Translations under genes and position numbers: made by a program
Shown here: positions 9,427-64,000 of the stretch, piece by piece
Position numbering within the stretch: the first letter of the stretch is position 1
Layout: every line of letters starts with the position of its first letter
Assembly (NCBI GenBank): GCA_020632135.1
Contig: JACKGC010000001.1
Span: 372,241-436,240 of the forward strand
Length of the DNA stretch: 64,000 nt
Direction: 5' to 3'
DNA from: Candidatus Nomurabacteria bacterium
Lineage (GTDB): Bacteria; Patescibacteriota; Minisyncoccia; Phycocordibacterales; UBA918
Notes under the pieces: generated by a model
Seen by the model: the letters and a program-made list of their open reading frames with translations, nothing else
Told to the model about the DNA's origin: nothing
Database searches by the model: none

Positions 9427-9480
9427 CGACCAGATTTTTAATGACTGAAAGGAATATAAAAATGGAAGTGCCCTTGTGGT
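9427..9480 (+). repeat. Copy of the junction-element block (GACCAGATT...TATAAAAATGGAAGTGCCCTTGTGGTG)
   Basis: Aligns to the R3 element at 40561-40612. Confidence 0.7.
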
Positions 9481-9514
9481 GCAAGTCTCTCCTCACTCTG
9501 CTAAATCTGAGACA

Positions 9515-9548: not shown

Positions 9549-9556
9549 TGGTCTAG

Positions 9557-9629
9557 TGCGCGATGAGAGACTTGAACTCCCGACCTTCTCGGTGTAAACG
9601 AGCTGCTCTACCAACTGAGCTAATCGCGC
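9557..9629 (-). tRNA. tRNA-Val (anticodon TAC)
   Basis: GCGCGATTAGCTCAGTTGGTAGAGCAGCTCGTTTACACCGAGAAGGTCGGGAGTTCAAGTCTCTCATCGCGCA. Confidence 0.9.
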
Positions 9630-9981: not shown

Positions 9982-10254
9982 ATGATACAAATGCAGGCGA
10001 TCATCTCCGGGAAGGTGCAAGGTGTGGCGTATCGTGCGTACGTGCAGGAGTCTGCCACAGAGCTCGAGTTGGTTGGGTATGTGTACAACCAGTCAGACGG
10101 AAGTGTGCTCGTGGTGGCTCAAGGTGCAGGAGAAGTACTCAAGGAATTTGTGGAGTACTTGCACGAGGGTTCACTTATGGCGGTAGTTGAGAGCGTGGCG
10201 GTCGAATGGGGAAGTGTTGGGAAAACCTACGATGAGTTTTCAGTGTTGCACTAA
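9982..10254 (+). CDS. acyP: Acylphosphatase
   Basis: ISGKVQGVAYRAYV...GYVYNQSDGSVLVVAQG. TATACT-N7-ATG lies upstream. Confidence 0.9.
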   Translation: MIQMQAIISGKVQGVAYRAYVQESATELELVGYVYNQSDGSVLVVAQGAGEVLKEFVEYLHEGSLMAVVESVAVEWGSVGKTYDEFSVLH

Positions 10255-29927: not shown

Positions 29928-30014
29928 ACAGGTTGGGCGCTACACCACAAGAGTACTTCCGTTTTGATTATCGGAATAGATCCTCTTTAAAAACTAGGTC
30001 GCGCGCCGGCCTGT

Positions 30015-38838: not shown

Positions 38839-39030
38839 ATGTGTGCTATTTGCGGACTACCAACTACTCACGCGAATTTTACCCAAGCTTTAGGATGGGC
38901 GGTTTTCTTTTCGTTCGCCCTTATGACTTTTTTAAGTACGTGGCTGATCGTGACCAGTGTGCGGGTACGTGCGTTCTTCCAAAAAATCCGACGATGGGCG
39001 GCGGGAGCTAAGAGATCACCCAGTAAATAA
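38839..39030 (+). CDS. Small CxxC membrane protein coupled to zur
   Basis: MCAICG... followed by one TM helix, with a 2-nt gap after zur. Confidence 0.35.
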   Translation: MCAICGLPTTHANFTQALGWAVFFSFALMTFLSTWLIVTSVRVRAFFQKIRRWAAGAKRSPSK

Positions 39031-39046
39031 ATGGATGTGTGATCTG

Positions 39047-39174
39047 GGGCACGTACTGTCCCTGGGTGCAACCAAATTTTTAAAGAGCTTGCGACTATAA
39101 AAATGGAAGTGCTCTTGTGGTGGAACCGGTTTGAGGAGATGACGATGAAGTGGTGAGGGGAAGGAGAGGGGTGT
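39047..39174 (+). repeat. Junction element R1
   Basis: GGGCACGTACTGTCCCTGGGTGCAACC...TATAAAAATGGAAGTGCTCTTGTGGTGGAACCGGTTTGAGGAGATG... Confidence 0.85.
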
Positions 39175-39435
39175 CTATCCGTATAGCTCACTATGAGAAC
39201 CGACGGCTACAAAGTGAACAACATCATCCTTAATGTATACATACACAGCTCGTACGTCTCCCGTCACATCAATACTAAAGTGGTTGCTCCATTTACCAGA
39301 CAAGCGATGGTTTCTGAGGGAGGGGTCGTATGGGTCATTAACAAATTTCTGCAATACCAACAGGACTTTCTTTTTTATCGGTTTTGGCAGCTTGGTAAAC
39401 TCTTTTTCAAATCGCTTCGACAGTACGTAGTGCAT
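39175..39435 (-). CDS. RelE/YafQ-family type II toxin
   Basis: 86 aa. ...LRNHRLSGKWSNHFSIDVTGDVRAVY...AVGSHSELYG. Paired with an upstream antitoxin. Confidence 0.8.
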   Translation of the reverse strand: MHYVLSKRFEKEFTKLPKPIKKKVLLVLQKFVNDPYDPSLRNHRLSGKWSNHFSIDVTGDVRAVYVYIKDDVVHFVAVGSHSELYG

Positions 39436-39436
39436 A

Positions 39437-39715
39437 CTAAAGCGTTTTTAGATGCTTGAGCATATCATCACCCGTCTTGAATGTGCGAGCCTTACCAGCA
39501 GCATATTCTGCTTGTGCCTCCTCTAAGATCTGCTCTAGATACGGAGTAGGGCGCAACGGATTCGCCGAGAGGGTAATTTCCTTATTACGAACAAATTGCT
39601 TGAGAAAGGCGTTTATTACGGTGCTCAACGGTACACCTAATTCCTCGGAAACCTTTTTAGCCTCTGCTTTCAGCTTTTTGTCAGTTTTAATGTTTAAAAT
39701 GGTGTGCGTATTCAT
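39437..39715 (-). CDS. RelB/DinJ-family antitoxin
   Basis: NIKTDKKLKAEAKKVSEELGVPLSTVINAFLKQFV. Confidence 0.8.
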   Translation of the reverse strand: MNTHTILNIKTDKKLKAEAKKVSEELGVPLSTVINAFLKQFVRNKEITLSANPLRPTPYLEQILEEAQAEYAAGKARTFKTGDDMLKHLKTL

Positions 39716-39750
39716 ATACCAAAGTATATACTTTGGTATTACTTCGTCAA
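39716..39750 (-). promoter_or_regulatory. TA1 promoter (TTGACG-N16/17-TATACT-N7-ATG) overlapped by a perfect 24-bp palindrome at 39716-39739
   Basis: ATACCAAAGTATATACTTTGGTAT. Confidence 0.65.
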
Positions 39751-39760
39751 GTACTCATAT

Positions 39761-39860
39761 AGGCACGTACTGTCCCTCGGTGCAACCTAATTTAACGACT
39801 GGAGGGAGTATAAAAATGGAAGTGCTCCTGTGGCGGAACCAATTAGAAGAGAGGTGCCTC
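39761..39860 (+). repeat. Junction element R2
   Basis: AGGCACGTACTGTCCCTCGGTGCAACC...TATAAAAATGGAAGTGCTCCTGTGGCGGAACC... Confidence 0.85.
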
Positions 39861-39939
39861 GCTTGGTTAAGCGAGGCAGGGGCTTGTTTTAGGTGATCAT
39901 ATTGAAAATGGTTCCGCTGGGTCGGTAGAAAAAACAATT

Positions 39940-40200
39940 CTACCCGTATAGCTCACTATGCGAGCCGGTGGCAACCAAAATCAATACCCCTTCATATGAG
40001 TCATCAAAGATCACTCGTATGTCAGCTGTCACATCGAAACTCCAGAGTCCAGTATATTTTCCTTTGAGGCTATGCGTGTGCAGCAGGGAATGGTTTTTGT
40101 CCTGCAAAAACAAGGTTAGTCGTTCAGCAAATTGTTCTTTGGTTTTTGCGGGCAACTTCTTGTATTGTTTCTCAAACTGCTTCGATTTTGCAATCCGCAT
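39940..40200 (-). CDS. RelE/YafQ-family type II toxin (second copy, diverged)
   Basis: ...HTHSLKGKYTGLWSFDVTADIRVIF...ATGSHSELYG. Confidence 0.8.
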   Translation of the reverse strand: MRIAKSKQFEKQYKKLPAKTKEQFAERLTLFLQDKNHSLLHTHSLKGKYTGLWSFDVTADIRVIFDDSYEGVLILVATGSHSELYG

Positions 40201-40203
40201 AGA

Positions 40204-40470
40204 CTATTTGTTGAGTGACGCAACTAAGTCGTCAACAGAATCAAATTCTTCTAGTCTGCCAGCTTCGTAGTCAGCCCGTGCTTCTTTAACTAAACGTTCA
40301 AGAAATGGAGTCATGCGAGGGGCAGAGGATAGTTCGAGTTCACCGGTGCGAGCAAACTGACTGAGGGTAGCATTTACCACTGCGCTCAATGAAAGTCCGA
40401 GTTCTTTGGCTCGCTTTTGAGCGTTCTTCTTGACGGTATCATCGATTTTTAAATTGACCTGGGTTTTCAT
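40204..40470 (-). CDS. RelB/DinJ-family antitoxin (second copy)
   Basis: NLKIDDTVKKNAQKRAKELGLSLSAVVNATLSQFA. Promoter TTGACG-N17-TATACT-N8-ATG lies upstream. Confidence 0.8.
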   Translation of the reverse strand: MKTQVNLKIDDTVKKNAQKRAKELGLSLSAVVNATLSQFARTGELELSSAPRMTPFLERLVKEARADYEAGRLEEFDSVDDLVASLNK

Positions 40471-40536
40471 GTACCCAAAGTATATATAGATGGTATTCCT
40501 ACGTCAAGTACTCAAAATTAGCAATTGTTCTCTTTA

Positions 40537-40673
40537 GGGCACGTACTGTCCATGGGTGCGACCAGATTATTAAAGGGCTTGCGACTATAAAAATAGAAGT
40601 GCTCTTGTGGCGGAACCAGTTTAAGGTAATGACGGTTGAGTGGCTGGAGGTGGTGAGAGAGGTGTTGAGATAA
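40537..40673 (+). repeat. Junction element R3
   Basis: GGGCACGTACTGTCCATGGGTGCGACCAGATT...TATAAAAATAGAAGTGCTCTTGTGGCGGAACCAGTTTAAGG... Confidence 0.85.
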
Positions 40674-40766
40674 ACTGGTCATGGCAGTCACTTGCGGATG
40701 TTGTTTTTAGTTACTTTGTTTTGAGAAAATTGGTAGTATTGATGGTAATAATGAGCGGATGTTGTT

Positions 40767-42068
40767 ATGCGTGAACGGTTTGGAAACTTCAATAATCCCC
40801 GCACTGAAGGAGTAAGAAAACGAGGTATCGACATAAAGGGTCCGAGTGACATGCTTGAGAGTCATGAAGCATTTGCCCAGTCAGTTGAGTCGTTGACTGA
40901 AGACCTGGCACAAGGTGTCCGTTTTGAGCAGAGTGCTTATCGGCTTACTGAAAGTGGTGATTTTACCAATCGGTATCGAGTAACTTTTTCTTCGGCAGAA
41001 GATATTGAATTTGAGATTAACACAAAAAATATCCCGAGCCATCTCCAACGTCAGCTGATAAATAATGAGTCCGTCGTGTGCTCTATAAACGGCGGTTTTT
41101 TCTTTTTAACTGATGATAAATTAGATAATCCTCCAAAAGAGATTGTTTTAGGTACAATTGTTCGAGATGGTGTGTTGTGTGGAGTACAATCGCATGATCG
41201 TCCTGTGCTTTGGGTTGATACAGACGGAGTTTTGCAGGTGACGGAAGTGATAAGCGAAGGTTATGTCACGATTGGAAATGCGATGTTTTCATGGGTAGGG
41301 AACAATTCTGGTCAGAAAAATGCAGAGGTGAAATTATTTGGCGTTGATAGTTGTGTCATTCAGCATGTGAGTGATTCAGAGACGGGTACTAAACGGGTTT
41401 TAAATGAGGAACTGAGTAAAACCCCAGCGAAAACCGATATCGTGGACATTGTGTGTGAGATAAGGGAAGGGTGTCTGGTGGTTTCTGAGAAGCGAGAAGG
41501 AGGTGGTACTTCTTTCTTGGAAGGGAATTTCCTTTTACAAGGAGACAAAGAAGCACTTCAAAATATCTCAGTAGGGGATATGGTTACTATCAATTACAAC
41601 GATCTTAATGTGAAAGAAATAAGAAATGCTATGACAGTCGGTCCTTCAGTATTTCATTTTGACGCGGAGCGTGATCATCCGATTAATCACGATAGGTCAT
41701 TGGGAGATAAACCATCTTTCTCTGATCGTCGCATGGCTCGTTCGGTTGTTTACAAAACGATAAATGATGCTGTCACATTCGAGGTGTTTGATGGAGCGCC
41801 TAAAACAGCCACATTTCAAGGTGTTACCCCAGAAGAGGTTGCTGATATTCTCAAGCAAAATGAGGTCGGTTTGGAGTGGGCGTATTTTCTTGACCCCGGA
41901 CAGTCTGCTCGATTGGCAGTACGTCACGCGGATGGCTCGGTTGAAGGGTATGGGAACCGTCATTATGTGCGGTGGCCAAGTTCATCTAATCAGCCGTATC
42001 TTTGGGCAGGAGAACACGGTCGAGCAGTACCCTCAGTGGTAAATGCTATACTGAAGCACAAAAAGTAA
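40767..42068 (+). CDS. DUF2233 / phosphodiester glycosidase-like protein, with no signal peptide
   Basis: CSINGGFFFL, MTVGPSVF and AYFLDPGQSARL resemble the NAGPA/DUF2233 motifs (INGGFF ... LDGGGS). Confidence 0.55.
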   Translation: MRERFGNFNNPRTEGVRKRGIDIKGPSDMLESHEAFAQSVESLTEDLAQGVRFEQSAYRLTESGDFTNRYRVTFSSAEDIEFEINTKNIPSHLQRQLINNESVVCSINGGFFFLTDDKLDNPPKEIVLGTIVRDGVLCGVQSHDRPVLWVDTDGVLQVTEVISEGYVTIGNAMFSWVGNNSGQKNAEVKLFGVDSCVIQHVSDSETGTKRVLNEELSKTPAKTDIVDIVCEIREGCLVVSEKREGGGTSFLEGNFLLQGDKEALQNISVGDMVTINYNDLNVKEIRNAMTVGPSVFHFDAERDHPINHDRSLGDKPSFSDRRMARSVVYKTINDAVTFEVFDGAPKTATFQGVTPEEVADILKQNEVGLEWAYFLDPGQSARLAVRHADGSVEGYGNRHYVRWPSSSNQPYLWAGEHGRAVPSVVNAILKHKK

Positions 42069-42070
42069 TT

Positions 42071-42682
42071 ATGTACACAACGAGAAAATCTTTCCCTAAA
42101 GATTTGCCACCAAAAAAAACCTTCTTTTGTATTTTGTGTGGAGCACCGTCAGTTGCTAAGGCGGTACAAGAGAATGGCACAGTCGTTTTTAAGTGTAGTA
42201 TTTGTAATGGTACGAATGAGCGTTTTTTAGCGTGGGATCCTGGTATGGAACAATTTTTCAATCAGGATAACGAGTTGGTGCACGGTAGTGTTGGGGTGAT
42301 CGTGCAGAATCAAAATAAAGAAATACTACTTTTTAAACGGGTGAAGTATCCGTTTTTGTGGACGATTCCAGCTGGACATTTAGATAAGGATGAGGATCCC
42401 AAGCAGGCTGCTACTCGTGAGTTACATGAAGAAACACAAATAAACGCGAGTGAGTTGCGGTCGGTCTTTGCGGGAGAAATTCGTGGCGATAGCTGTGTTG
42501 GTGGTGCTGACATTCACTATTGGCATGCGTATGTGTATCAAGCAAGTGATGATGTTGAGCCGATCATTGAAGCTGAGGAGGGAAGAGAGTGGGGTTGGTT
42601 TGTGCTCAGTGAGTTACCAGAACTAACCATGCCAGTCGGCTATTTACTATCTTTGTCCGAGGTGTGTGTGACTCTGGAATGA
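42071..42682 (+). CDS. Zn-ribbon plus Nudix hydrolase (NudC-like architecture)
   Basis: CILCG...CSICNG followed by the Nudix box GHLDKDEDPKQAATRELHEETQI. Starts 3 nt after the upstream stop. Confidence 0.75.
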   Translation: MYTTRKSFPKDLPPKKTFFCILCGAPSVAKAVQENGTVVFKCSICNGTNERFLAWDPGMEQFFNQDNELVHGSVGVIVQNQNKEILLFKRVKYPFLWTIPAGHLDKDEDPKQAATRELHEETQINASELRSVFAGEIRGDSCVGGADIHYWHAYVYQASDDVEPIIEAEEGREWGWFVLSELPELTMPVGYLLSLSEVCVTLE

Positions 42683-42715
42683 TTTCCTCCATCTAAACGC
42701 AAAAAACAGCATTTA

Positions 42716-42842
42716 GTGGAACCAAAAGTCCTTGTTTCATTATGTTTCCTAGGTATCTAGGACAGTAGGGCACGTACTGTCTCTGGGGTGGAACCAGTTT
42801 GAGGAGATGTGTATTGAGTGGTTGGAAGAGGCGAGGATGGTG
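42716..42842 (+). repeat. Junction element R4; carries the full inverted-repeat core at 42760-42781
   Basis: GTGGAACCAAAAGTCCTTGTTTCATTATGTTTCCTAGGTATCTAGGACAGTAGGGCACGTACTGTCTCTGGGGTGGAACCAGTTTGAGGAGATG... Confidence 0.85.
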
Positions 42843-42882
42843 TTTTGTAAATTAGAATCTTGATATTGTATACTTTAAGCAT

Positions 42883-43302
42883 ATGGAAACATTGCCTTTA
42901 GGTAAGGTTGCTGCTTCAGCGGCAGTTATTAGAAGAAACAAGATTCTTTTATTACAACGTTCTGAAAAATCAAAACTATTTCCTGGATACTGGACCTTTC
43001 CTTCGGGGGGAATAGAGGAATTTGATCCCAATGCTGAATCAGCAGTCTCACGAGAAGTAAAAGAAGAAACAGGACTAGACTTTGTTCCAAAAAAGAAATT
43101 TGGTTTTTATGAGAGTCATGCGGGTGGTAAACGTCATTTTGCATTAGTCCATCTTGGTGTTAGTAAAGGAAAGTTACGACTCCAGGAGTCAGAAGTGATT
43201 ACCGCAAATTGGTTTACATATAAAGAAGCAAAGAAACTGAATCTAGCTTTTGCGTACCCAAATGTGATCAAAGATTTATACAAAAGTAAGCTGATTCAAT
43301 AA
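42883..43302 (+). CDS. Nudix hydrolase
   Basis: GGIEEFDPNAESAVSREVKEETGL. TATACT-N8-ATG lies upstream. Confidence 0.8.
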   Translation: METLPLGKVAASAAVIRRNKILLLQRSEKSKLFPGYWTFPSGGIEEFDPNAESAVSREVKEETGLDFVPKKKFGFYESHAGGKRHFALVHLGVSKGKLRLQESEVITANWFTYKEAKKLNLAFAYPNVIKDLYKSKLIQ

Positions 43303-50701: not shown

Positions 50702-50709
50702 AAAGAGCG

Positions 50710-50804
50710 GAGCTTGTGAGACTTATTTCGCACACGCTCCGATGTCCACAGATCCGCTTAAGCATTCAATCCCCGCGGACGCTCGAAATAAGTCCCACAA
50801 GCTC
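50710..50804 (+). repeat. Hairpin element E1 (21-bp stem and conserved core)
   Basis: GAGCTTGTGAGACTTATTTCG-[CACACGCTCCGATGTCCACAGATCCGCTTAAGCATTCAATCCCCGCGGACGCT]-CGAAATAAGTCCCACAAGCTC. Confidence 0.75.
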
Positions 50805-50865
50805 TGCTTGGACAGAGACTGAGGTATACTGTCGCAACTTACTAACGAATAATTTCTGAACATCT

Positions 50866-52606: not shown

Positions 52607-52699
52607 ACCGCCAGACACCAATTTTTCACACGCTCCGATGTTCACAGACCAGCTTAAGCACGCAACCCCCGCGGATGTTCAAAATTAGTGTCTGGCGGT
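52607..52699 (+). repeat. Hairpin element E2 (19-bp stem, same core as E1)
   Basis: ACCGCCAGACACCAATTTT-[tCACACGCTCCGATGTTCACAGACCAGCTTAAGCACGCAACCCCCGCGGATGTTC]-AAAATTAGTGTCTGGCGGT followed by TTTTT. Confidence 0.75.
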
Positions 52700-56817: not shown

Positions 56818-56833
56818 TTACGTTACTCAAAAG

Positions 56834-56870
56834 AAAAGACGGGCAGCTTCGCTGCCCGTCTTTTCTTTTT
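56834..56870 (+). terminator. Terminator after rplK (no rplA follows)
   Basis: GACGGGCAGC-ttc-GCTGCCCGTC followed by TTTTCTTTTT. Confidence 0.8.
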
Positions 56871-56895
56871 ATAGAGAAACTGCCCGATTTAATCA

Positions 56896-56986
56896 TGCGA
56901 AGGAAAGGCCTCCGCAAACAAACATGTGCGAAGGAAAGGCCTCCGCAATCTAGGCCTCCGCAATCTAAGGAAGTGCTCTTGTGGTG
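56896..56986 (+). repeat. Nested direct repeats plus an exact copy of the 18-mer GGAAGTGCTCTTGTGGTG, upstream of the cofE-like gene
   Basis: TGCGAAGGAAAGGCCTCCGCAA occurs twice (56896, 56927). AGGCCTCCGCAATCT occurs twice (56937, 56952). The 18-mer is at 56969-56986. Confidence 0.75.
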
Positions 56987-57805: not shown

Positions 57806-60800
57806 ATGTCAGGTACTCGGTACCGAACGTTTGTGGTAGTCGGAGCCGTCCTCCTCGCGCTTTTCGCTATGTACTGGAGCGGCTTCTTCACTACCACCCA
57901 TTCCATCACCGACGACCTCGCCCAGTTCGACCTCGTCGGAGAGCGAGTTGAGGACGACTTCACCCAGTACCCACTGGTATCATTAAACGACGAGTACACC
58001 CTCACCGATACCCTCAAGGACGGCGTCGAGATCACCTATGGCAGCCAAGCCAGTACTACTTTCAATTCTCCTGACCTTAGTCAGTCTCTGTCACTCCAGT
58101 TCCCAAAGTCTCTCTCAGAACCCCTCACCATCACGCTCCCGGGCAATCGCACCTTCACTGTCACCCACAACGTGGAAGGTCACTACCAGAGTGAGCTCCT
58201 CACTAACACAACGGCCGCGACTGACCCGCTCCGCTTCGGCGCACGCTCCGAGGCGCTAACCCAAGTCGAATCTGCCGAAGCGGAGGAGTCAGTCGCGGCC
58301 GAAGCAACCCCCACCTACCTCAAGTACACCTCCCCCAACTCCCGCACCCACACGTACTACGCCTACCAGAAGGACCAAGCCGCCGGCTACCGCAACTTAA
58401 AGCACTGGACCATCTACCAAAGCGGTACCGGCCAAGAGACCGCCTCATACACCTTCGCTAACGCCCACCTCAAGACCAACGACCGGGGGGAAGTGGAAGT
58501 CCGCTATCTAGGGACTTACGAGGTCCCTAGATCGGGGGAAGAGGGAGGAGGAGCGGTCGAGGCTGACCTCTGGGCCCGTGCTCAGGCCGTCCTTGCAAAA
58601 GACGCCCTTCTAAACATCGAGAACCAACCCCCTGATCTCACCATCCCCGCCCCGTACACCATCGATGCCCAAGGCAACCAGGTCACTCATGAGTGGGTGG
58701 TCACCCCCCAAAGTGCTATCGACCCGTCTGATACTTCCGGCAACTACGTCCTCTCCGTCTCTTTCGAGGTACCGCTCCTTGGCTACCCAATTGCGCTCGA
58801 TCCAACCCTGCAGTTTACCGCACCCGGCACCAGCAACTCAGGTGACGTCATCACCGGCGAAAAGACAAGCAGCAACTTCGGCACCAGCATGACCACCGGC
58901 GACTGGAACGGTGACGGCAAGACCGACCTGGCGGTGGGGGCCAGTGGCTACGATAACATTGGAGGAGAGGGGAGGGTCTACATCTTCTGGTCTTCCAGCC
59001 GACCAGATAATACTGCTGAGGCCGACGTCATCTTGACTGGTCAAAGCACAATCAATGAATTTGGCCACTCCCTCGCGACCGGCGACTTCAACGCCGACGG
59101 CACCGACGACCTGGTGGTAGGGGCTCGAGGATACGGCAGTAGTCAAGGACGAGTGTATACCTTCTACGGCGGCAGTCTCGAGGGTGGGGTAGCAAACACT
59201 GTTGCTGACGATATCATCACCGGTGAAGCTTCCTTTAATTTTTTCGGTCAATCGCTTGCAGTCGGCGATTTCGATGCTGATGGTCGGGATGATCTCGCGG
59301 TTGGAGCAAATTATTATAGCGTCGGCTCATTTACCTTGGATGGCCGTGCTTACATCTTCTATGGTGACGGCTCCATCCCCACCACCGCTGGCACAGCCGA
59401 CGTCACCCTAACCGGCGAAGCTGCCAACAACAACTTCGGCTCCTCCCTCACCACCGGTGACTACAACGCCGACGGCACCGACGACCTGGCCGTGGGCGCC
59501 TACTTCTGGAACAACAACGCCACCGGCCGCGCCTACCTCTTCTACGGCGGCAGCATGGTCTCTGAGAACGCCTCCGGCGCCGACGTCACCCTAACCGGCG
59601 AAGCTACCAGCAACCAATTCGGCTGGTCTCTCACCACCGGTGACTACAACGCCGACGGCACCGACGACCTGGCCGTGGGCGCCTACAGCTACACTACTAA
59701 CACCGGCCGCGCCTACCTCTTCTACGGCGGCAGCATGGTCTCTGAGAACGCCTCCGGCGCTGATATTATCCTGACTGGTGAGACTACCAACAACCGCTTC
59801 GGCCACTCCCTCATCACCGGTGACTACAACGCCGACGGCACCGACGACCTGGCCGTGGGCGCCTATCGGTACAACTCCTCCCAAGGCCGCGCCTACCTCT
59901 TCTACGGCGGCAGCATGGTCTCTGAGAACGCCTCCGGCGCCGACGTCACCCTAACCGGCGAAGCCACCAACAACAGCTTCAGCTATTCCCTCACGACCGG
60001 CGACTTAAACGATGACGGGAAAGACGACCTCCTCGTCGGAGCCTACCAGTACAACTCCTACCAAGGTCGCACCTACATCTTCTACTCCCAATCCGGGCAG
60101 GTGAACTTAAATGAGCACATCACCGGCGAGGGCACCGGCGACTACTTCGGCTCGGCTTTTGCCGTTGGCGACTTCAACAACGACGGCCGGGATGACTTAG
60201 CGGTGGGTGCGCCATATGACAACTCCAACACCGGGAAAGTGTACATTTTCTACAACGACGGTGACTACAGCACCCTAGCGAGTACGAGTGACGTGATTCT
60301 CACAGGTTCAACAACAGGCGACAAATTTGGCACCGCTCTCATCGCTGGTGACTTCAACAACAATGGCCAAGATGATCTAGTAATTACAGCAACGTTTTAT
60401 AACAGCAACCAAGGTGGCGCATTTATTTTTTATGGAGGTGACATTGTTTCAAACTCGGCATCTTCTGCAGACGTCATCATCACTGGAGAAGCGTCAAGCT
60501 ACCTGGGAGATGTATTGGAAAAAGGTGACCTCAATAACGACGGTGTTGATGATTTGGTTATTAGCTCCATTAACTACGGAACTGTAACGGGCCGCGCCTA
60601 CCTCTTCTACGGGGGTACGCTTTCAAGTAGCTCAGCTTCAGCAGCAGATGTTATTTTCACAGGTGAATCCACATTAGACGCCTTCGGCATCTCCCTCACC
60701 ACCGGCGACTTCAACGCCGACGGCACCGACGACCTCGCGGTCGGCGCCTTCCTCTACTCCGCACAGACCGGCCGCGCCTACCTCTTCTACGGCGGCGCTA

Positions 60801-63800
60801 TGGCAAGCGGCAACGCCTCCGGCGCGGATGTGACCTTGACCGGCGAGACCACCGGCAACGCCTTCGGCATCTCCCTCACCACCGGCGACTTCAACCACGA
60901 CGGCACCGACGACCTCGCGGTTGGTGCCTCCGGCTACACCACAAACACCGGCCGCGCCCACCTCTTCTACGGCGGCGCTATGACCAGCAAGAACGCCTCC
61001 GGCGCGGATGTGACCTTGACCGGCGAGACCACCGACAACCGCTTCGGCTATTCGCTCACGACCGGCGACTTCAACGCCGACGGCACCGACGACCTCGCGG
61101 TCGGCGCCTTCCACTACTCCTCATTTACCGGCCGCGCCTACCTCTTCTACGGCGGTACCTTTACTGCTTCCATGGAAGCCGCCACCAGCTCGAGCATTAT
61201 GATCACCGGCGACTCTGCAAACGACGACTTTGGCCTCTCCCTCGCCACCGGCGACTTCAACGCCGACGGGAAGGACGACTTGGTCATCGGCGCGCCGGGC
61301 TACGACAACGGTGGGGACACCGGCCGCATATACTTCTACGAAACCCGCGAGGACTACGCCTGGGAGATCCAGCGGCAGTCCTTGGCTGATGGCCTGCGCG
61401 TCGACCCCCTCATGGGCTACGAGATGAAGATCACGGGGGAGGGGACGGGCAACTCCTTCGCCTCCGCCATCGCCATGGCCGACCTCAACCACGACGGCAA
61501 GGATGACCTCATTGTGGGAGCGTCAGCCTATGATAGTACGTACATAAACGTTGGTAAGGTGTATATCTTCTACAACGACGGCAACTACCCAGCGCGAGCA
61601 GGTCGTGCAGACCATGTGATTGTGGGCGCGAACCTAAACGCTCTGTTCGGTACATCAATGACAACTGGAGACTTCAATGGGGATGGAGTGTTAGACCTGG
61701 CGGTTGGTTCGTATTCATACAGTTCCTACCAAGGCCAAACGTACATATTCTATGGCCCGATCACAGCAGATAGTATCGCAGATGCAGACGTCACGCTCAC
61801 TGGTGAGGCAGTTAGTTACTTTGGTGAATCCATGACCGTGGGTGACTTTAATGACGACGGAACAGACGACCTAGTGGTTGGTGCAACAGCATATAGTAGC
61901 TCAAACTTTACGGGCCGAGCATATATCTTTTACGGTAATTCTCTGACCGATGAAACTGCCACGGGCGCTGATGTAATATATACAGGAGAATCAACCTTTG
62001 ATTTTCTAGGCTACAGCTTAGCGGTTGGTGATTATAATAACGATGGTGTGGACGATCTAGCGGCTGGTGCGTATTTTTATGGTACTAACGTTGGTCGAGC
62101 TTATCTTTTCTTTAGTACTTCTACTCCTGGATCACGGAATGCCTCAGCCGCTGATGCGATATACACTGGTGAGAGCGGTAGCAGCTTTGGCGCCAGTCTG
62201 ACTGCAGGTGATTATAACCACGATGGAATTGATGATGTCGCTATCGGTGCTTCCGGATACACGACCAATACAGGTCGAACGTATCTATTTTTCAGCACCT
62301 CTACCCCTGGCTCGCGCAATGCCATAGCAGCAGACGTTATCTTAACTGGCGAAATCACCAACAACTACTTCGGCACCTCCCTCACCACCGGTGACTTTAA
62401 CCACGACGGCACCGACGACCTCGCGGTGGCGGCGGAAGGCTACGATGTCACCACGAACTCCAACGAAGGCCGCGCGTACATCTTCTACAGCACCTCCACC
62501 CCCGGCTCGCGCGCCGCTACAGCCGCTGATGTGATCCTCACCGGAGAAGGCGCGAGTAACTCCTACGGCGGTGCCCTCTTCTCTGGCGACCTCAACAACG
62601 ACGGGACCGACGACCTCCTCGTCGGCGCCGCAGGGTACAACTCCTCCCAAGGCCGGCTCTACTTCTACACCACCAACGACCGGCACATGACGGGCGAGGG
62701 AACGGACGATACCCTAGGTACTAGTTTTGCTACCGGTGACTTCAATCATGACGGAAATAATGATCTTGCAGTGGGGGCGCCGGGGTACGGCGCAAATCAA
62801 GGTAGAGCATATCTTTTCTATGGCGGTAGAAAAGCGACGACGAGCGCAAGTGGTGCTGATGTCGTCCTAACGGGTCAGACTACCGGTAACTACTTCGCTC
62901 GCTCCCTCGCTACTGGCGATTTCAATAATGACGGTACAGACGATCTGGTGGTAGGCGCTAGGGGGCATACGTCTAATACCGGCCGGGCGTATATTTTCTA
63001 TGGTGGAGAAATGGCAGCTTCGTTGACGGCGGGTGCTGATGAGGATGTTGCCATTTCTGGTGAAGGGGCAGTTGACTACTTCAGTAACTCATTTGCAGTT
63101 GGTGATTACAACGCAGATGGCAGGGATGACTTGATTGCTACAGCTATTGGATACACCTCCGTGTCATTTACTGGTAGAGCATATATTTTCTATGGCGGTG
63201 GGTCATTTCCCACAGCTGCTGCTGACGCAGATGTGATCATAGGCGGCGAGAACGCCGGAGACATATTAGGTTACTCCCTCACCACCGGTGACTTCAACGC
63301 CGACGGCACCGATGACTTTGTGATTGGAGCAACCGGCTATTCCTCTGGTGCTGGAACTGGTCGTGCTTATATATTTTACGGAGGCGCTCTTGCAAGTACA
63401 ACCGCCAGCAATGCAAATGTGATACTTACCGGCGAGGATACCAGCAACAATTTCGGCGAGGAGCTCAGCTCCGGCGACTTCAACGCCGACGGCACCGATG
63501 ACTTGGCGGTTGGTGCGTACTCCTACAACACATCCCAAGGCCGTGCATATATCTTCTACGGCGGTAGTATGACGAGCGAGAGCGCCTCTGCGGCAGACGT
63601 GATACTTACCGGCGAGGATACCAGCAACGTATTCGGCGCCTCCCTCACCACCGGCGACTTCAACGCCGACGGCACCGACGACCTGGCGGTTGGTGCATAC
63701 ACCTACAATACATCCCAAGGCCGTGCATATATCTTCTACGGTAACGAGCTTCGTACGACCGGCGCGGAAAATGCCAATGTCATTGTGACCGGCGAGAAGA

Positions 63801-64000
63801 CATCAAGTAACTTTGGTATCACACTCGCCGCAGGTGACCTCAACAGCAATGGCGTCGACGACCTTATTATCAGTGCCTCTGGCTACGACGACACCTCCAT
63901 CACCAACAACGACGAAGGCCGCGTGTACATCATCACCTCCGAAGCCGCGGCGGAGCGGTACTCGCATCACCAGCTGCAAGGGACGATCCAGTTCTTTGGT
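57806..64000 (+). CDS. Giant membrane-anchored FG-GAP (integrin-alpha-like) repeat protein; the 3' end lies beyond the window
   Basis: Not in the ORF track. I translated the frame by hand from the ATG at 57806 (an in-frame TAA lies at 57794) to 64000 and found no stop. N-terminal TM helix FVVVGAVLLALFAMYWSGFF. There are 28 units of about 60 aa with the pattern FGxSLxxGDFNxDGxDDLxVGA...GRAYxFYG. Confidence 0.9.
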   Translation, partial: MSGTRYRTFVVVGAVLLALFAMYWSGFFTTTHSITDDLAQFDLVGERVEDDFTQYPLVSLNDEYTLTDTLKDGVEITYGSQASTTFNSPDLSQSLSLQFPKSLSEPLTITLPGNRTFTVTHNVEGHYQSELLTNTTAATDPLRFGARSEALTQVESAEAEESVAAEATPTYLKYTSPNSRTHTYYAYQKDQAAGYRNLKHWTIYQSGTGQETASYTFANAHLKTNDRGEVEVRYLGTYEVPRSGEEGGGAVEADLWARAQAVLAKDALLNIENQPPDLTIPAPYTIDAQGNQVTHEWVVTPQSAIDPSDTSGNYVLSVSFEVPLLGYPIALDPTLQFTAPGTSNSGDVITGEKTSSNFGTSMTTGDWNGDGKTDLAVGASGYDNIGGEGRVYIFWSSSRPDNTAEADVILTGQSTINEFGHSLATGDFNADGTDDLVVGARGYGSSQGRVYTFYGGSLEGGVANTVADDIITGEASFNFFGQSLAVGDFDADGRDDLAVGANYYSVGSFTLDGRAYIFYGDGSIPTTAGTADVTLTGEAANNNFGSSLTTGDYNADGTDDLAVGAYFWNNNATGRAYLFYGGSMVSENASGADVTLTGEATSNQFGWSLTTGDYNADGTDDLAVGAYSYTTNTGRAYLFYGGSMVSENASGADIILTGETTNNRFGHSLITGDYNADGTDDLAVGAYRYNSSQGRAYLFYGGSMVSENASGADVTLTGEATNNSFSYSLTTGDLNDDGKDDLLVGAYQYNSYQGRTYIFYSQSGQVNLNEHITGEGTGDYFGSAFAVGDFNNDGRDDLAVGAPYDNSNTGKVYIFYNDGDYSTLASTSDVILTGSTTGDKFGTALIAGDFNNNGQDDLVITATFYNSNQGGAFIFYGGDIVSNSASSADVIITGEASSYLGDVLEKGDLNNDGVDDLVISSINYGTVTGRAYLFYGGTLSSSSASAADVIFTGESTLDAFGISLTTGDFNADGTDDLAVGAFLYSAQTGRAYLFYGGAMASGNASGADVTLTGETTGNAFGISLTTGDFNHDGTDDLAVGASGYTTNTGRAHLFYGGAMTSKNASGADVTLTGETTDNRFGYSLTTGDFNADGTDDLAVGAFHYSSFTGRAYLFYGGTFTASMEAATSSSIMITGDSANDDFGLSLATGDFNADGKDDLVIGAPGYDNGGDTGRIYFYETREDYAWEIQRQSLADGLRVDPLMGYEMKITGEGTGNSFASAIAMADLNHDGKDDLIVGASAYDSTYINVGKVYIFYNDGNYPARAGRADHVIVGANLNALFGTSMTTGDFNGDGVLDLAVGSYSYSSYQGQTYIFYGPITADSIADADVTLTGEAVSYFGESMTVGDFNDDGTDDLVVGATAYSSSNFTGRAYIFYGNSLTDETATGADVIYTGESTFDFLGYSLAVGDYNNDGVDDLAAGAYFYGTNVGRAYLFFSTSTPGSRNASAADAIYTGESGSSFGASLTAGDYNHDGIDDVAIGASGYTTNTGRTYLFFSTSTPGSRNAIAADVILTGEITNNYFGTSLTTGDFNHDGTDDLAVAAEGYDVTTNSNEGRAYIFYSTSTPGSRAATAADVILTGEGASNSYGGALFSGDLNNDGTDDLLVGAAGYNSSQGRLYFYTTNDRHMTGEGTDDTLGTSFATGDFNHDGNNDLAVGAPGYGANQGRAYLFYGGRKATTSASGADVVLTGQTTGNYFARSLATGDFNNDGTDDLVVGARGHTSNTGRAYIFYGGEMAASLTAGADEDVAISGEGAVDYFSNSFAVGDYNADGRDDLIATAIGYTSVSFTGRAYIFYGGGSFPTAAADADVIIGGENAGDILGYSLTTGDFNADGTDDFVIGATGYSSGAGTGRAYIFYGGALASTTASNANVILTGEDTSNNFGEELSSGDFNADGTDDLAVGAYSYNTSQGRAYIFYGGSMTSESASAADVILTGEDTSNVFGASLTTGDFNADGTDDLAVGAYTYNTSQGRAYIFYGNELRTTGAENANVIVTGEKTSSNFGITLAAGDLNSNGVDDLIISASGYDDTSITNNDEGRVYIITSEAAAERYSHHQLQGTIQFFG

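Follow-up and report, generated by a model that had tools for sequence, protein, structure and literature searches.

Repetitive extragenic palindromes (REPs) consist of a 5' GTAG tetranucleotide beside an imperfect palindrome of 20-40 nt, lie outside genes, form the inverted pairs of bacterial interspersed mosaic elements (BIMEs) and are mobilised by REP-associated tyrosine transposases (RAYTs), which are IS200-like Y1 enzymes of the HUH kind. Classical IS200/IS605 elements, from which the palindrome-associated transposable elements (PATEs) derive, show an orientation bias. Rickettsia palindromic elements (RPEs), about 100-150 bp long, are confined to Rickettsia; miniature inverted-repeat transposable elements (MITEs), such as the Neisseria Correia elements and the enterobacterial repetitive intergenic consensus (ERIC) sequences, have terminal inverted repeats and target-site duplications; the attC sites of integrons span 57-141 nt. 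The Patescibacteria have tiny, streamlined genomes, in which, to our knowledge, few mobile elements have been described. Here, a sequence of 40 bases at 39083-39122, within a 64,000-nt stretch of contig JACKGC010000001.1 from a Candidatus Nomurabacteria bacterium (the window), is analysed. It makes up the 3' two-thirds of one copy, E1, of a multi-copy family that is confined to the Patescibacteria, has apparently not been described before and is best called a family of small non-autonomous palindromic mobile repeats. We put at roughly 0.75 the probability that the flagged sequence is a copy of a small non-autonomous mobile element that is recognised as folded single-stranded DNA.

The original prediction had noticed that the 18-mer GGAAGTGCTCTTGTGGTG recurs outside a local array as part of a dispersed element, and this is the case. 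Exact matches lie at 39105-39122 and 56969-56986, and a copy with one mismatch, placed by the prediction at 9463-9480, is real and starts one position further on (9464-9481). Another match with one mismatch, on the minus strand at 29943-29960, had been missed; two mismatches are found at 39818 and 40595, and a doubtful match at 10099 has three. Altogether, the window holds seven matches at up to three mismatches, compared with 0.06 expected from dinucleotide shuffles.

These matches resolve into five full element copies and one hairpin-less remnant, a density of about one per 10 kb (bit scores are those of the covariance model described below). E1 (39069-39122, plus strand; 71.9 bits, E 1e-16) comprises 54 inserted nt, CAACC...CTTGTGGTG, which follow the flanking GTG at 39066-39068; its boundaries are set by comparison with an empty local repeat. 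E2 (39783-39835, plus; 51.6 bits) belongs to another inner-module subtype (AACGACTGGAGGGAGTAT), and E3 (40559-40612, plus; 61.4 bits) carries ATA instead of ATG/TGG. E4 (9427-9481, plus; 67.6 bits) points its tail at tRNA-Val (9556-9629, minus), whose 3' end is 75 nt away, and E5 (29943-30001, minus; 70.3 bits) is lodged between two convergent genes, inside the loop of the long hairpin GGAATGAACAGG...CCTGTTCATTCC, where the flanks form a duplex of -32.3 kcal/mol. The remnant, GCAATCTA-A-GGAAGTGCTCTTGTGGTG (56960-56986, plus; 23.8 bits, E 4e-4), has 31 hairpin positions deleted and sits between rplK and a cofE-like gene, whereas the three-mismatch match, part of a doubtful decayed copy ACAACCAGTC..GACGGAAGTGTGCTCGTGGTG (10085-10116, plus; 10.9 bits, E 0.84), may be due to chance. 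Just upstream of the remnant, at 56830-56968, the rplK/cofE-like region is locally rearranged, with GCGAAGGAAAGGCCTCCGCAA present twice and AGGCCTCCGCAATCTA present twice in tandem.

Element copies are present or absent at otherwise orthologous sites, and one such comparison lies within the window itself. A local ‘outer' repeat of about 110 nt, which separates gene cassettes, occurs four times on the plus strand: O1 (39047-39176) carries E1, O2 (about 39761-39880) carries E2, O3 (about 40537-40666) carries E3, and O4 (42768-42844) contains both halves of the other three without the 54 nt, the insertion point being after G42790. The filled repeats read ...CCCTGGGTG, then the insertion CAACC...CTTGTGGTG, then GAACC..., as against ...CTCTGGGGTG^GAACCAG... 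in the empty one. The outer repeat has its own signature, GGGCACGTACTGTCYCTGG, with four matches in the window versus 0.03 expected and none in 119 other loci. The three-copy ‘array' thus exists because the cassette-separating repeat carries the element at a single hot spot; E2 differs from E1 and E3 in inner-module subtype at this same insertion point. The original prediction had also taken the point after ...CTTGTGGTG for an element terminus, which is borne out by the comparison of copies and by the filled and empty sites.

Protein-coding genes provide a second comparison. Most orthologues of the tRNA-dihydrouridine synthase Dus have 320-326 residues, read ...PIVAQIF... at the relevant place and are empty, whereas three lineages have 19 extra residues (APQEHFHFPKPEYGQGKSV and relatives). 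A single 57-nt copy is found in loci L120 and L121 and two tandem copies in L084, with L122 and L123 empty; P0002 and P0004, the homologues listed as most similar to the two-copy protein (70-71% identity), have no copy either. At the nucleotide level, the empty ATYGTCGCR^CAAAT corresponds to a filled GTCGCA-CCACARG.GCAC...TTGGTCGCA-CAAAT, that is, to an insertion of 57 nt. Further in-frame copies are found in the genes for a CopA-type ATPase, PrmC (two copies), oligopeptidase B, KsgA and Fpg, in both orientations and three frames, and would be read, like those in Dus, as 19-residue peptides such as APQGHFHFPNPGYREGKLV. Six cases of in-frame extension compare with only two weak candidates for gene disruption. 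In other Dus homologues (P0010/P0098/P0114, P0101/P0113, P0030/P0056/P0119, P0053/P0027 and P0048), different short in-frame insertions recur elsewhere in the enzyme, in various lineages (e.g. GLTRLNLENSDLRFNLVSS.EHG and ARPIQHGVKVLPLRL), which suggests that additional kinds of small insertion element are at work in patescibacterial proteins.

RNA genes are affected, too. Five copies overlap the 3' end of a tRNA gene by exactly 5 nt, in antisense orientation. In these genomes, 71 of the 87 tRNA genes have no encoded CCA, whereas all five overlapped ones read N73-CCA-CAAG, and in silico removal of the element restores ordinary trailers (CAAAC, CATTAG, CATAAA, CAAGAA), so that the CCA is the TGG of the element. 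Nearly all CCA-less tRNA genes (in the window and in loci L003-L115) are directly followed by C-A (N73-CAAA/CAAG/CAT...), a uniform start of the trailer. One copy lies in a 23S rRNA gene (L070, 1-675, minus strand), inside an insertion of about 150 nt; this insertion, near Escherichia coli position ~180, also includes a partial duplication of the flank, and its element copy is on the rRNA strand.

A further type of site is the loop of a pre-existing hairpin. Flanks that are mutually complementary (at or below -15 kcal/mol) were found for 17% of the copies, compared with 6% of re-paired controls (p 0.002), and the copies concerned sit, as E5 does (-32 kcal/mol), in the loop of a terminator-like hairpin; complementarity in a fixed register was uninformative, and the duplex-energy test was used instead. 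For E5, no strain-level empty allele was seen, all three contigs that encode the neighbouring protein being filled. Several metagenome-assembled genomes of Paceibacteria contain a second palindrome family, (C)TGGATCCCCGC...GCGGGGATGAC(A), often with the element in its loop: it flanks the element in L007, L016, L022, L028, L032, L038, L039, L053, L073 and L111, and empty copies occur in L073 and L018. Insertion is tolerated in the loops of terminators and other hairpins, right behind the discriminator base in CCA-less tRNA genes, in an rRNA expansion and in putative surface loops of proteins (in frame, 57 nt).

The insertion rule is the same at all resolved sites (O4 versus O1-O3; Dus in L122/L123 versus L120/L121/L084; four tRNA ends): the element, C(G/A)AC...CTTGTGGTG, follows G-Y-G^. 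Of the copies, 66% have G at position -3 and 73% have it at -1, and in 48% the tail is followed by C. There is no target-site duplication; the flanking base at -2 matches the Y' of the tail at chance level, and the upstream flank does not covary with the tail. The terminal GTG of the element allows another copy to insert immediately after it, giving spacer-less head-to-tail tandems.

The family is large. The tail pattern AAAAYRGAAGTRCYCYTGTGGYG (~40 bits) has more than 116 exact-match loci among the matches listed, from at least about 75 assemblies, versus about one expected by chance in 596 Gb. The hosts are labelled Parcubacteria/Paceibacteria, Kaiser-, Taylor-, Wolfe- and Lloydbacteria, Minisyncoccia and, in third-party bins, ‘Saccharibacteria'; the sole label outside the Patescibacteria, among the matches listed, belongs to a 5.7-kb contig in an ‘Omnitrophica' bin. 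Copies recovered by the profile alone have 1-4 changes in the tail. The tail motif has no match in 2.9 million viral contigs. In Rfam, only tRNAs reach the gathering score in the window, and the region 38950-40750 has no match at E values up to 10; searches of the literature with motif strings and keywords returned no description of the element.

Anatomy was derived by lining up 125 distinct copies. The unit is usually 42-60 nt long (54 nt in E1) and follows a common plan: (G)CGAC; C with 1-2 bulged nucleotides; A-TTTT(T); an inner module that varies; (A)AAAA-T-G-G; AAGT; and R-C-Y-CTTGT-G-G-Y'-G. In the lower stem, CC-(bulge)-A-TTTT(T) pairs with (A)AAAA-T-GG, and the tail GAAGTRCYCTTGTGGYG is almost invariant and single-stranded, with its RCY and GGY forming a mini-hairpin of 3 bp. 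Four subtypes differ in the inner module: subtype 1, the window type, reads N-G-A[G-mini-hairpin-C]G-A-N'-(T/C)AT, has tandem G.A pairs and is the source of TATAAAAAT; subtype 2 is a continuous stem, CTTAG-NNN-TACT-NNN-CTTAG; subtype 3 is the minimal GAT-TT-ATC in a 42-nt unit; and subtype 4 is CTTGA[GCGAAGC]GATTAG. In place of the TATA sequence, other subtypes with the same tail carry CTTAGAAAAAT, GATTTATCAAAAT or GATTAGAAAAT. In E1, the main irregular hairpin spans 39068-39110 (plus strand), with 39068-69 paired to 39109-10 and 39072-73 to 39105-06, AATTTTTA (39075-39082) paired to TATAAAAAT (39096-39104) and an inner mini-hairpin, GCTTGC, at 39087-39092; the pair 39084/39095 is an A-C mismatch. 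The conserved 3' tail, GCTCTTGTGGTG (39111-39122, plus), has its mini-hairpin at 39111-13/39119-21 and ends in GTG. Composite versions of 150-240 nt, in which extra hairpins replace the apical module, occur in L028 (minus, ~1440-1590) and L051 (4175-4415); the element can thus carry cargo or be the target of nested insertions.

The pairing of the main hairpin is supported by covariation. When 111 copies were parsed by hand, the two bases that border the tracts, one preceding the T-tract and the other following the A-tract, proved to be A/T in 100 copies and G/C in seven; of the eight C's, seven are partnered by G, and CGAC-C pairs off with AAAAT-G whereas CGAC-T/A pairs off with AAAAT-A. In a plain MAFFT alignment of 27 window-type copies, the family structure is paired in 92.9% of the cells, compared with 86.5% in column shuffles, and 34 cells are double changes versus 9.7 in shuffles (0 of 500 as high), with slid registers lowering the pairing to 35-54%. 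The swaps include T.A to C.G atop the T/A stem (seven copies), A.T to G.C below it and, within the inner mini-hairpin, at least four kinds of pair. With a covariance model derived from this alignment, 129 copies were recovered from 100 sources, and in the 121 distinct rows, as fitted to that model, 91.6% of the cells are paired versus 79.6% in shuffles, 238 are double changes versus 64 (0 of 500), and 16 of the 19 pairs show compensatory changes. Tail variation is limited to R, Y and Y', which give A.T/G.T/G.C and T.G/C.G in the 3-bp stem RCY/GGY'; the pairs R.Y', C.G and Y.G are 99-100% paired, R is G in all seven copies that end in GGCG (Fisher p 1e-4), and G is accompanied by C in the pair next to it (p 1e-8). 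An earlier consensus structure, computed with RNAalifold from continuous-stem copies in a plain MAFFT alignment, was discarded, its inner stem being mis-aligned. The functional form is therefore likely to be a folded single strand, in which TATAAAAAT is the 3' strand of a long irregular hairpin; here the original prediction, which had also argued for a folded single strand, was probably right, although not in the specific hairpin that it proposed for presenting TATAAAAATGGAAGTG.

Strand asymmetry bears on whether DNA or RNA is read. Over all pairs, 234 G.T cells compare with 38 A.C cells, an excess that comes almost wholly from three conserved wobbles, the main stem being symmetric; because of the G.T wobbles in the tail mini-hairpin, the whole structure can form on the given strand only. 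Relative to the neighbouring genes, 35 copies are arranged as <E<, 29 as >E<, 21 as >E> and 17 as <E>, and some are antisense to tRNAs and host genes. Both orientations and the antisense copies fit a reading at the DNA level better than one at the RNA level, and we infer DNA rather than RNA as the level of action.

If so, a trans-acting enzyme would recognise the element as folded single-stranded DNA and move it, reading the 5' CGAC and the 3' tail. A tentative first guess is an HUH/Y1 enzyme of the IS200/IS605 or RAYT kind, acting by ‘peel and paste', because there is no target duplication, the target is short and fixed, the ends are asymmetric and some pairs are strand-specific. A tyrosine recombinase acting on a folded site comes second and would be an unlikely, though not outlandish, candidate. 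Among 998 open reading frames (ORFs) from the sampled loci, all-against-all clustering yielded recurrent housekeeping genes plus small clusters of Y1_Tnp, Xer-like, HNH and NYN proteins, with no consistent adjacent arrangement. Y1_Tnp genes lie 110-780 nt from four copies in all. In 1.2 Mb of sampled loci, a search for orphan heads and tails a few kb apart found no autonomous parent with the same ends, only the ORF-less composites of 150-240 nt. One RAYT-like Y1_Tnp gene of the IS200 type (L022, 4270-4931) is bracketed by palindromes of its own, TACATCTCTCCGACAGATGT..ACATCAGTCGGAGAGATGT, in a REPtron-like arrangement unrelated to the element.

Several observations weigh against a mobile element recognised as folded single-stranded DNA. 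The loci were fetched by exact tail match, so that the near-invariance of the tail is in part a matter of ascertainment, and the 121-row alignment favours the structure to which it was fitted, the unfitted results agreeing with it in direction. None of the five window copies, on either strand, folds better than dinucleotide shuffles (z -0.3 to +1.2); E1 as a single strand has -4.4 kcal/mol versus -4.0 ± 1.6 for shuffles (z -0.27). The continuous-stem and minimal subtypes reach z of about -2.7 with DNA parameters, and the window subtype does no better than its shuffles because it consists largely of A.T and G.A pairs. Complementary arms could also be kept by template-switch correction instead of selection. 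The 5' end of the element (GTGCGAC) has 3-7 nt in common with its targets, so that the exact crossover is ambiguous and homology-guided recombination or template switching becomes possible; an enzyme-free microhomology process seems unlikely, somewhat more so than a tyrosine recombinase. No mobilising enzyme was found in the sampled loci. Genes for IS200-like Y1 proteins (PF01797) lie less than 800 nt from only three of 116 sampled elements, and 80 metagenome loci that encode Y1 relatives, most of them probably from element-free genomes, contain one weak, diverged copy, 110 nt from the gene. Neither the GC skew of the flanks on the element strand (negative in 59% of the loci, p 0.16) nor the orientation relative to neighbouring genes is biased.

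Comparison with known kinds of elements places the family closest, in its presumed mode of working, to REP/RAYT systems or IS200/IS605-derived PATEs, while in genes it resembles RPEs. Like REPs, the elements are imperfect palindromes, short, bulged and high in copy number, and a single-stranded motif beside the hairpin is conserved; they are frequent at gene ends and terminators, are presumably handled in trans as folded single-stranded DNA and occur in genomes with Y1_Tnp genes. Unlike REPs, they have no GTAG, their 5' motif being (G)CGAC, and a conserved tail of 17 nt lies 3' of the hairpin in units of 42-60 nt; they are mostly solo or in direct, same-orientation tandems of two to four without spacers, not in inverted pairs; in-frame copies are present in at least six genes and a copy in a 23S rRNA gene; the family spans many lineages and is not species-specific; and no cognate RAYT gene flanked by the element was found in the sampled loci. 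With PATEs, the family shares asymmetric ends that lack terminal inverted repeats, insertion on the 3' side of a short, specific sequence without target duplication and a preference for single-stranded targets in hairpin loops; hairpins near the ends and strand-specific wobble pairs may be further points in common. It differs from them in its much smaller size (42-60 nt), a single large hairpin plus one of 3 bp, a target of only G-Y-G, the lack of replication-strand bias and the lack of an autonomous parent with the same ends in the 1.2 Mb sampled. RPEs, too, are selfish palindromes that enter protein genes in frame, and RNA genes, without destroying them; the sequences are unrelated, and the present family has a defined insertion rule (after GYG, no duplication). 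Like MITEs, the elements are small, non-autonomous, multi-copy, mostly intergenic and able to alter the expression of neighbours; unlike those of MITEs, their ends, CGAC... and ...GTGGTG, do not form an inverted repeat, and no duplication is made.

Among the alternatives to a mobile folded element, the one that fares best is that of a REP/BIME-like cis-element of the host (a protein-binding site, a stabiliser of mRNA 3' ends, a terminator enhancer or a 3'-end module of tRNAs), with spread as a secondary matter. The extreme conservation of the tail across distant lineages, the preservation of the hairpin in each copy, even within coding regions, and the frequent positions at or near terminators and after tRNA genes, where the element supplies CCA, would all suit such a role. 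Against it stand the occurrence in both orientations and in divergent promoter regions (the 17 <E> cases), the copies inside proteins and rRNA, and a hairpin that is not followed by a U-tract; the presence or absence of copies at orthologous sites implies that no single copy is required. Function and mobility are compatible, so that this explanation, improbable as a replacement, is better viewed as an add-on.

A considerably less probable alternative is an attC-like site of an integron-type cassette array, on which a tyrosine recombinase acts in the folded strand. Four repeats do separate small cassettes (two YafQ/RelB pairs, each with a promoter of its own, NAGPA+NUDIX, and NUDIX), these genomes include genes for Xer-like recombinases, and the element has the conserved ends, two helical segments, internal loop or unpaired spacer, bulged (extrahelical) bases and variable terminal structure of a folded attC site. 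The attC cores RYYYAAC/GTTRRRY are, however, missing from the element, and the outer repeat offers only poor matches: the nearest are GTGCAAC (one mismatch) and GTTTGAG in the outer repeat (two mismatches), which are complementary at four of seven positions and missing from solo copies elsewhere. A scan of the proteins in the 64-kb window revealed no integrase gene. The fourth cassette boundary has no element, so that the outer repeat, and not the element, marks the boundary; copies elsewhere are mostly solo, in tandem without cassettes, or in genes. Moreover, the 3' end of the element lies 12 nt past the base of the helix, and the element moves without a cassette gene.

About as improbable, or slightly more so, is the model of the original prediction, in which an AAGAGC/GCTCTT hairpin presents TATAAAAATGGAAGTG, and TATAAAAAT is the -10 box of a transcript antisense to the toxin genes. 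The short complementary segments that it listed, such as AAGAGC (39083-88) and GCTCTT (39111-16), exist; this 6-bp complementarity is the minimum-energy fold of E1, and in the window subtype the consensus AGGAG is complementary to CTCYT in 82% of the cells versus at most 67% for slid registers. The pairing is possible as an alternative conformer of that subtype. The E1 fold is, however, no better than shuffles, and the ‘compensatory changes' vanish in the covariance model alignments, where the positions that had been compared prove to be non-homologous: the 5' arm lies in the 5' half of the inner module in E1 and E3, whereas AAGG and GGAG, in E4 and E2, respectively, belong to its loop or 3' half, so that the allegedly compensated pairs fall in differing columns. 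Among the 27 same-subtype copies, this helix is paired in 82.1% of the cells versus 80.5% in column shuffles, 47 of 500 being as high, with double changes at one pair only; a T in the tail becomes C in 30% of the copies while its proposed partner stays A. Nor can the pairing be drawn in the other subtypes, although they keep the same tail. The loop TATAAAAAT, described as invariant, is missing from other subtypes and, where present, is the 3' strand of the covarying main stem. As a -10 box, it has no -35 partner: a promoter-consensus scan yields only the minus-strand promoters of the toxin-antitoxin pairs. E3 has ATA, and TATAAAAAT is subtype-specific. A link to the toxin genes is not supported either, since copies elsewhere are found in all gene contexts and in both orientations. 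The sequence that had been flagged is thus a real object, whose folded strand and end were rightly sensed and whose hairpin and function were misread.

The start of a small peptide (ATG GAA GTG CTC TTG TGG ..., or MEVLLW...) is hardly credible: open frames of 17-26 codons do run from the ATG in E1 and E2, and the tail is free of stops in all six frames, but E3 has ATA, the peptides diverge right after the tail, and most family members have AAAATAG or other contexts, with in-gene copies in three frames and on both strands.

Two other candidates were rejected. An intrinsic terminator does not fit, the T-tract being 5' and the A-tract 3' of the inner stem and paired with each other, with no T-run following on either strand. 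Arrays of tandem interspaced guide RNAs (TIGR) consist of 5-15 tandem 36-nt units with edge and loop repeats, beside a gene for the Nop-domain protein Tas (PMC12045711). The copies described here are dispersed or in spacer-less tandems of two to four, their variable arms are complementary to each other, and the sampled loci show no protein family as a constant neighbour.

For the mobile folded element, the chances appear evenly balanced that an inclusive account holds: a family, spread across the Patescibacteria and not described before, of structured mobile elements smaller than any others known (42-60 nt), whose universal 17-nt tail and 5' CGAC would be read on one folded DNA strand by a conserved, possibly host-encoded enzyme, inserting after G-Y-G without duplication and repeatedly remodelling minimal genomes through 19-residue loops in essential enzymes, an rRNA expansion, split terminator loops and the conversion of CCA-less into CCA-encoding tRNA genes. 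Such an element would represent a major cause of genomic change in the Patescibacteria that has so far been overlooked, and supplying CCA to CCA-less tRNA genes would be an unusual case of a selfish insertion that changes the structure of tRNA genes. The exact insertion rule and the universal tail make the mobilising enzyme searchable; should it prove new, it would be a compact single-strand DNA integrase specific for both sequence and structure. In practice, the element would complicate gene calling, through small ORFs that are spurious and unusual stretches of 19 extra residues in enzymes such as Dus, PrmC, KsgA, Fpg and CopA, and would offer a handle for strain typing.

The region around O1-O4 (39036-43302) has an integron-like cassette look without an integrase, the repeat GGGCACGTACTGTCYCTGG ... 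GGAACCNGTTTRAGGAGATG..GAGTGG.. occurring four times. Between the repeats lie two YafQ/ParE-RelB toxin-antitoxin pairs (minus strand), NAGPA paired with NUDIX, and one more NUDIX gene. An open frame, WNQFEEM.IEWLEE..., is kept in the right half of the outer repeat in all four copies. The two toxin-antitoxin cassettes have separate promoters of the form TTGACG-16/17-TATACT (39716-39750 and 40471-40507, minus strand), and in the first one a perfect 24-nt palindrome, ATACCAAAGTATATACTTTGGTAT, overlaps the -10 box and the start codon and is likely to be an antitoxin operator.

Other repeats are found elsewhere in the window. Two repeats of about 76 nt (50706-50808 and 52607-52699), 80% identical and each in an inverted repeat of 24-25 nt, are located just downstream of the gene for the small subunit of ribonucleotide reductase and of the next gene, respectively. 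A very large gene (58800-64000), which runs off the end of the window, consists of at least 25 degenerate repeats of about 180 nt (60 residues) with FG..GD.N.DG..D motifs, similar to FG-GAP/VCBS repeats. Outside the window, a group I intron (Rfam RF00028, 69.6 bits) in L085 (1047-1348) overlaps the 3' end of a predicted HNH-type ORF (790-1155), 1.3 kb from an element copy.

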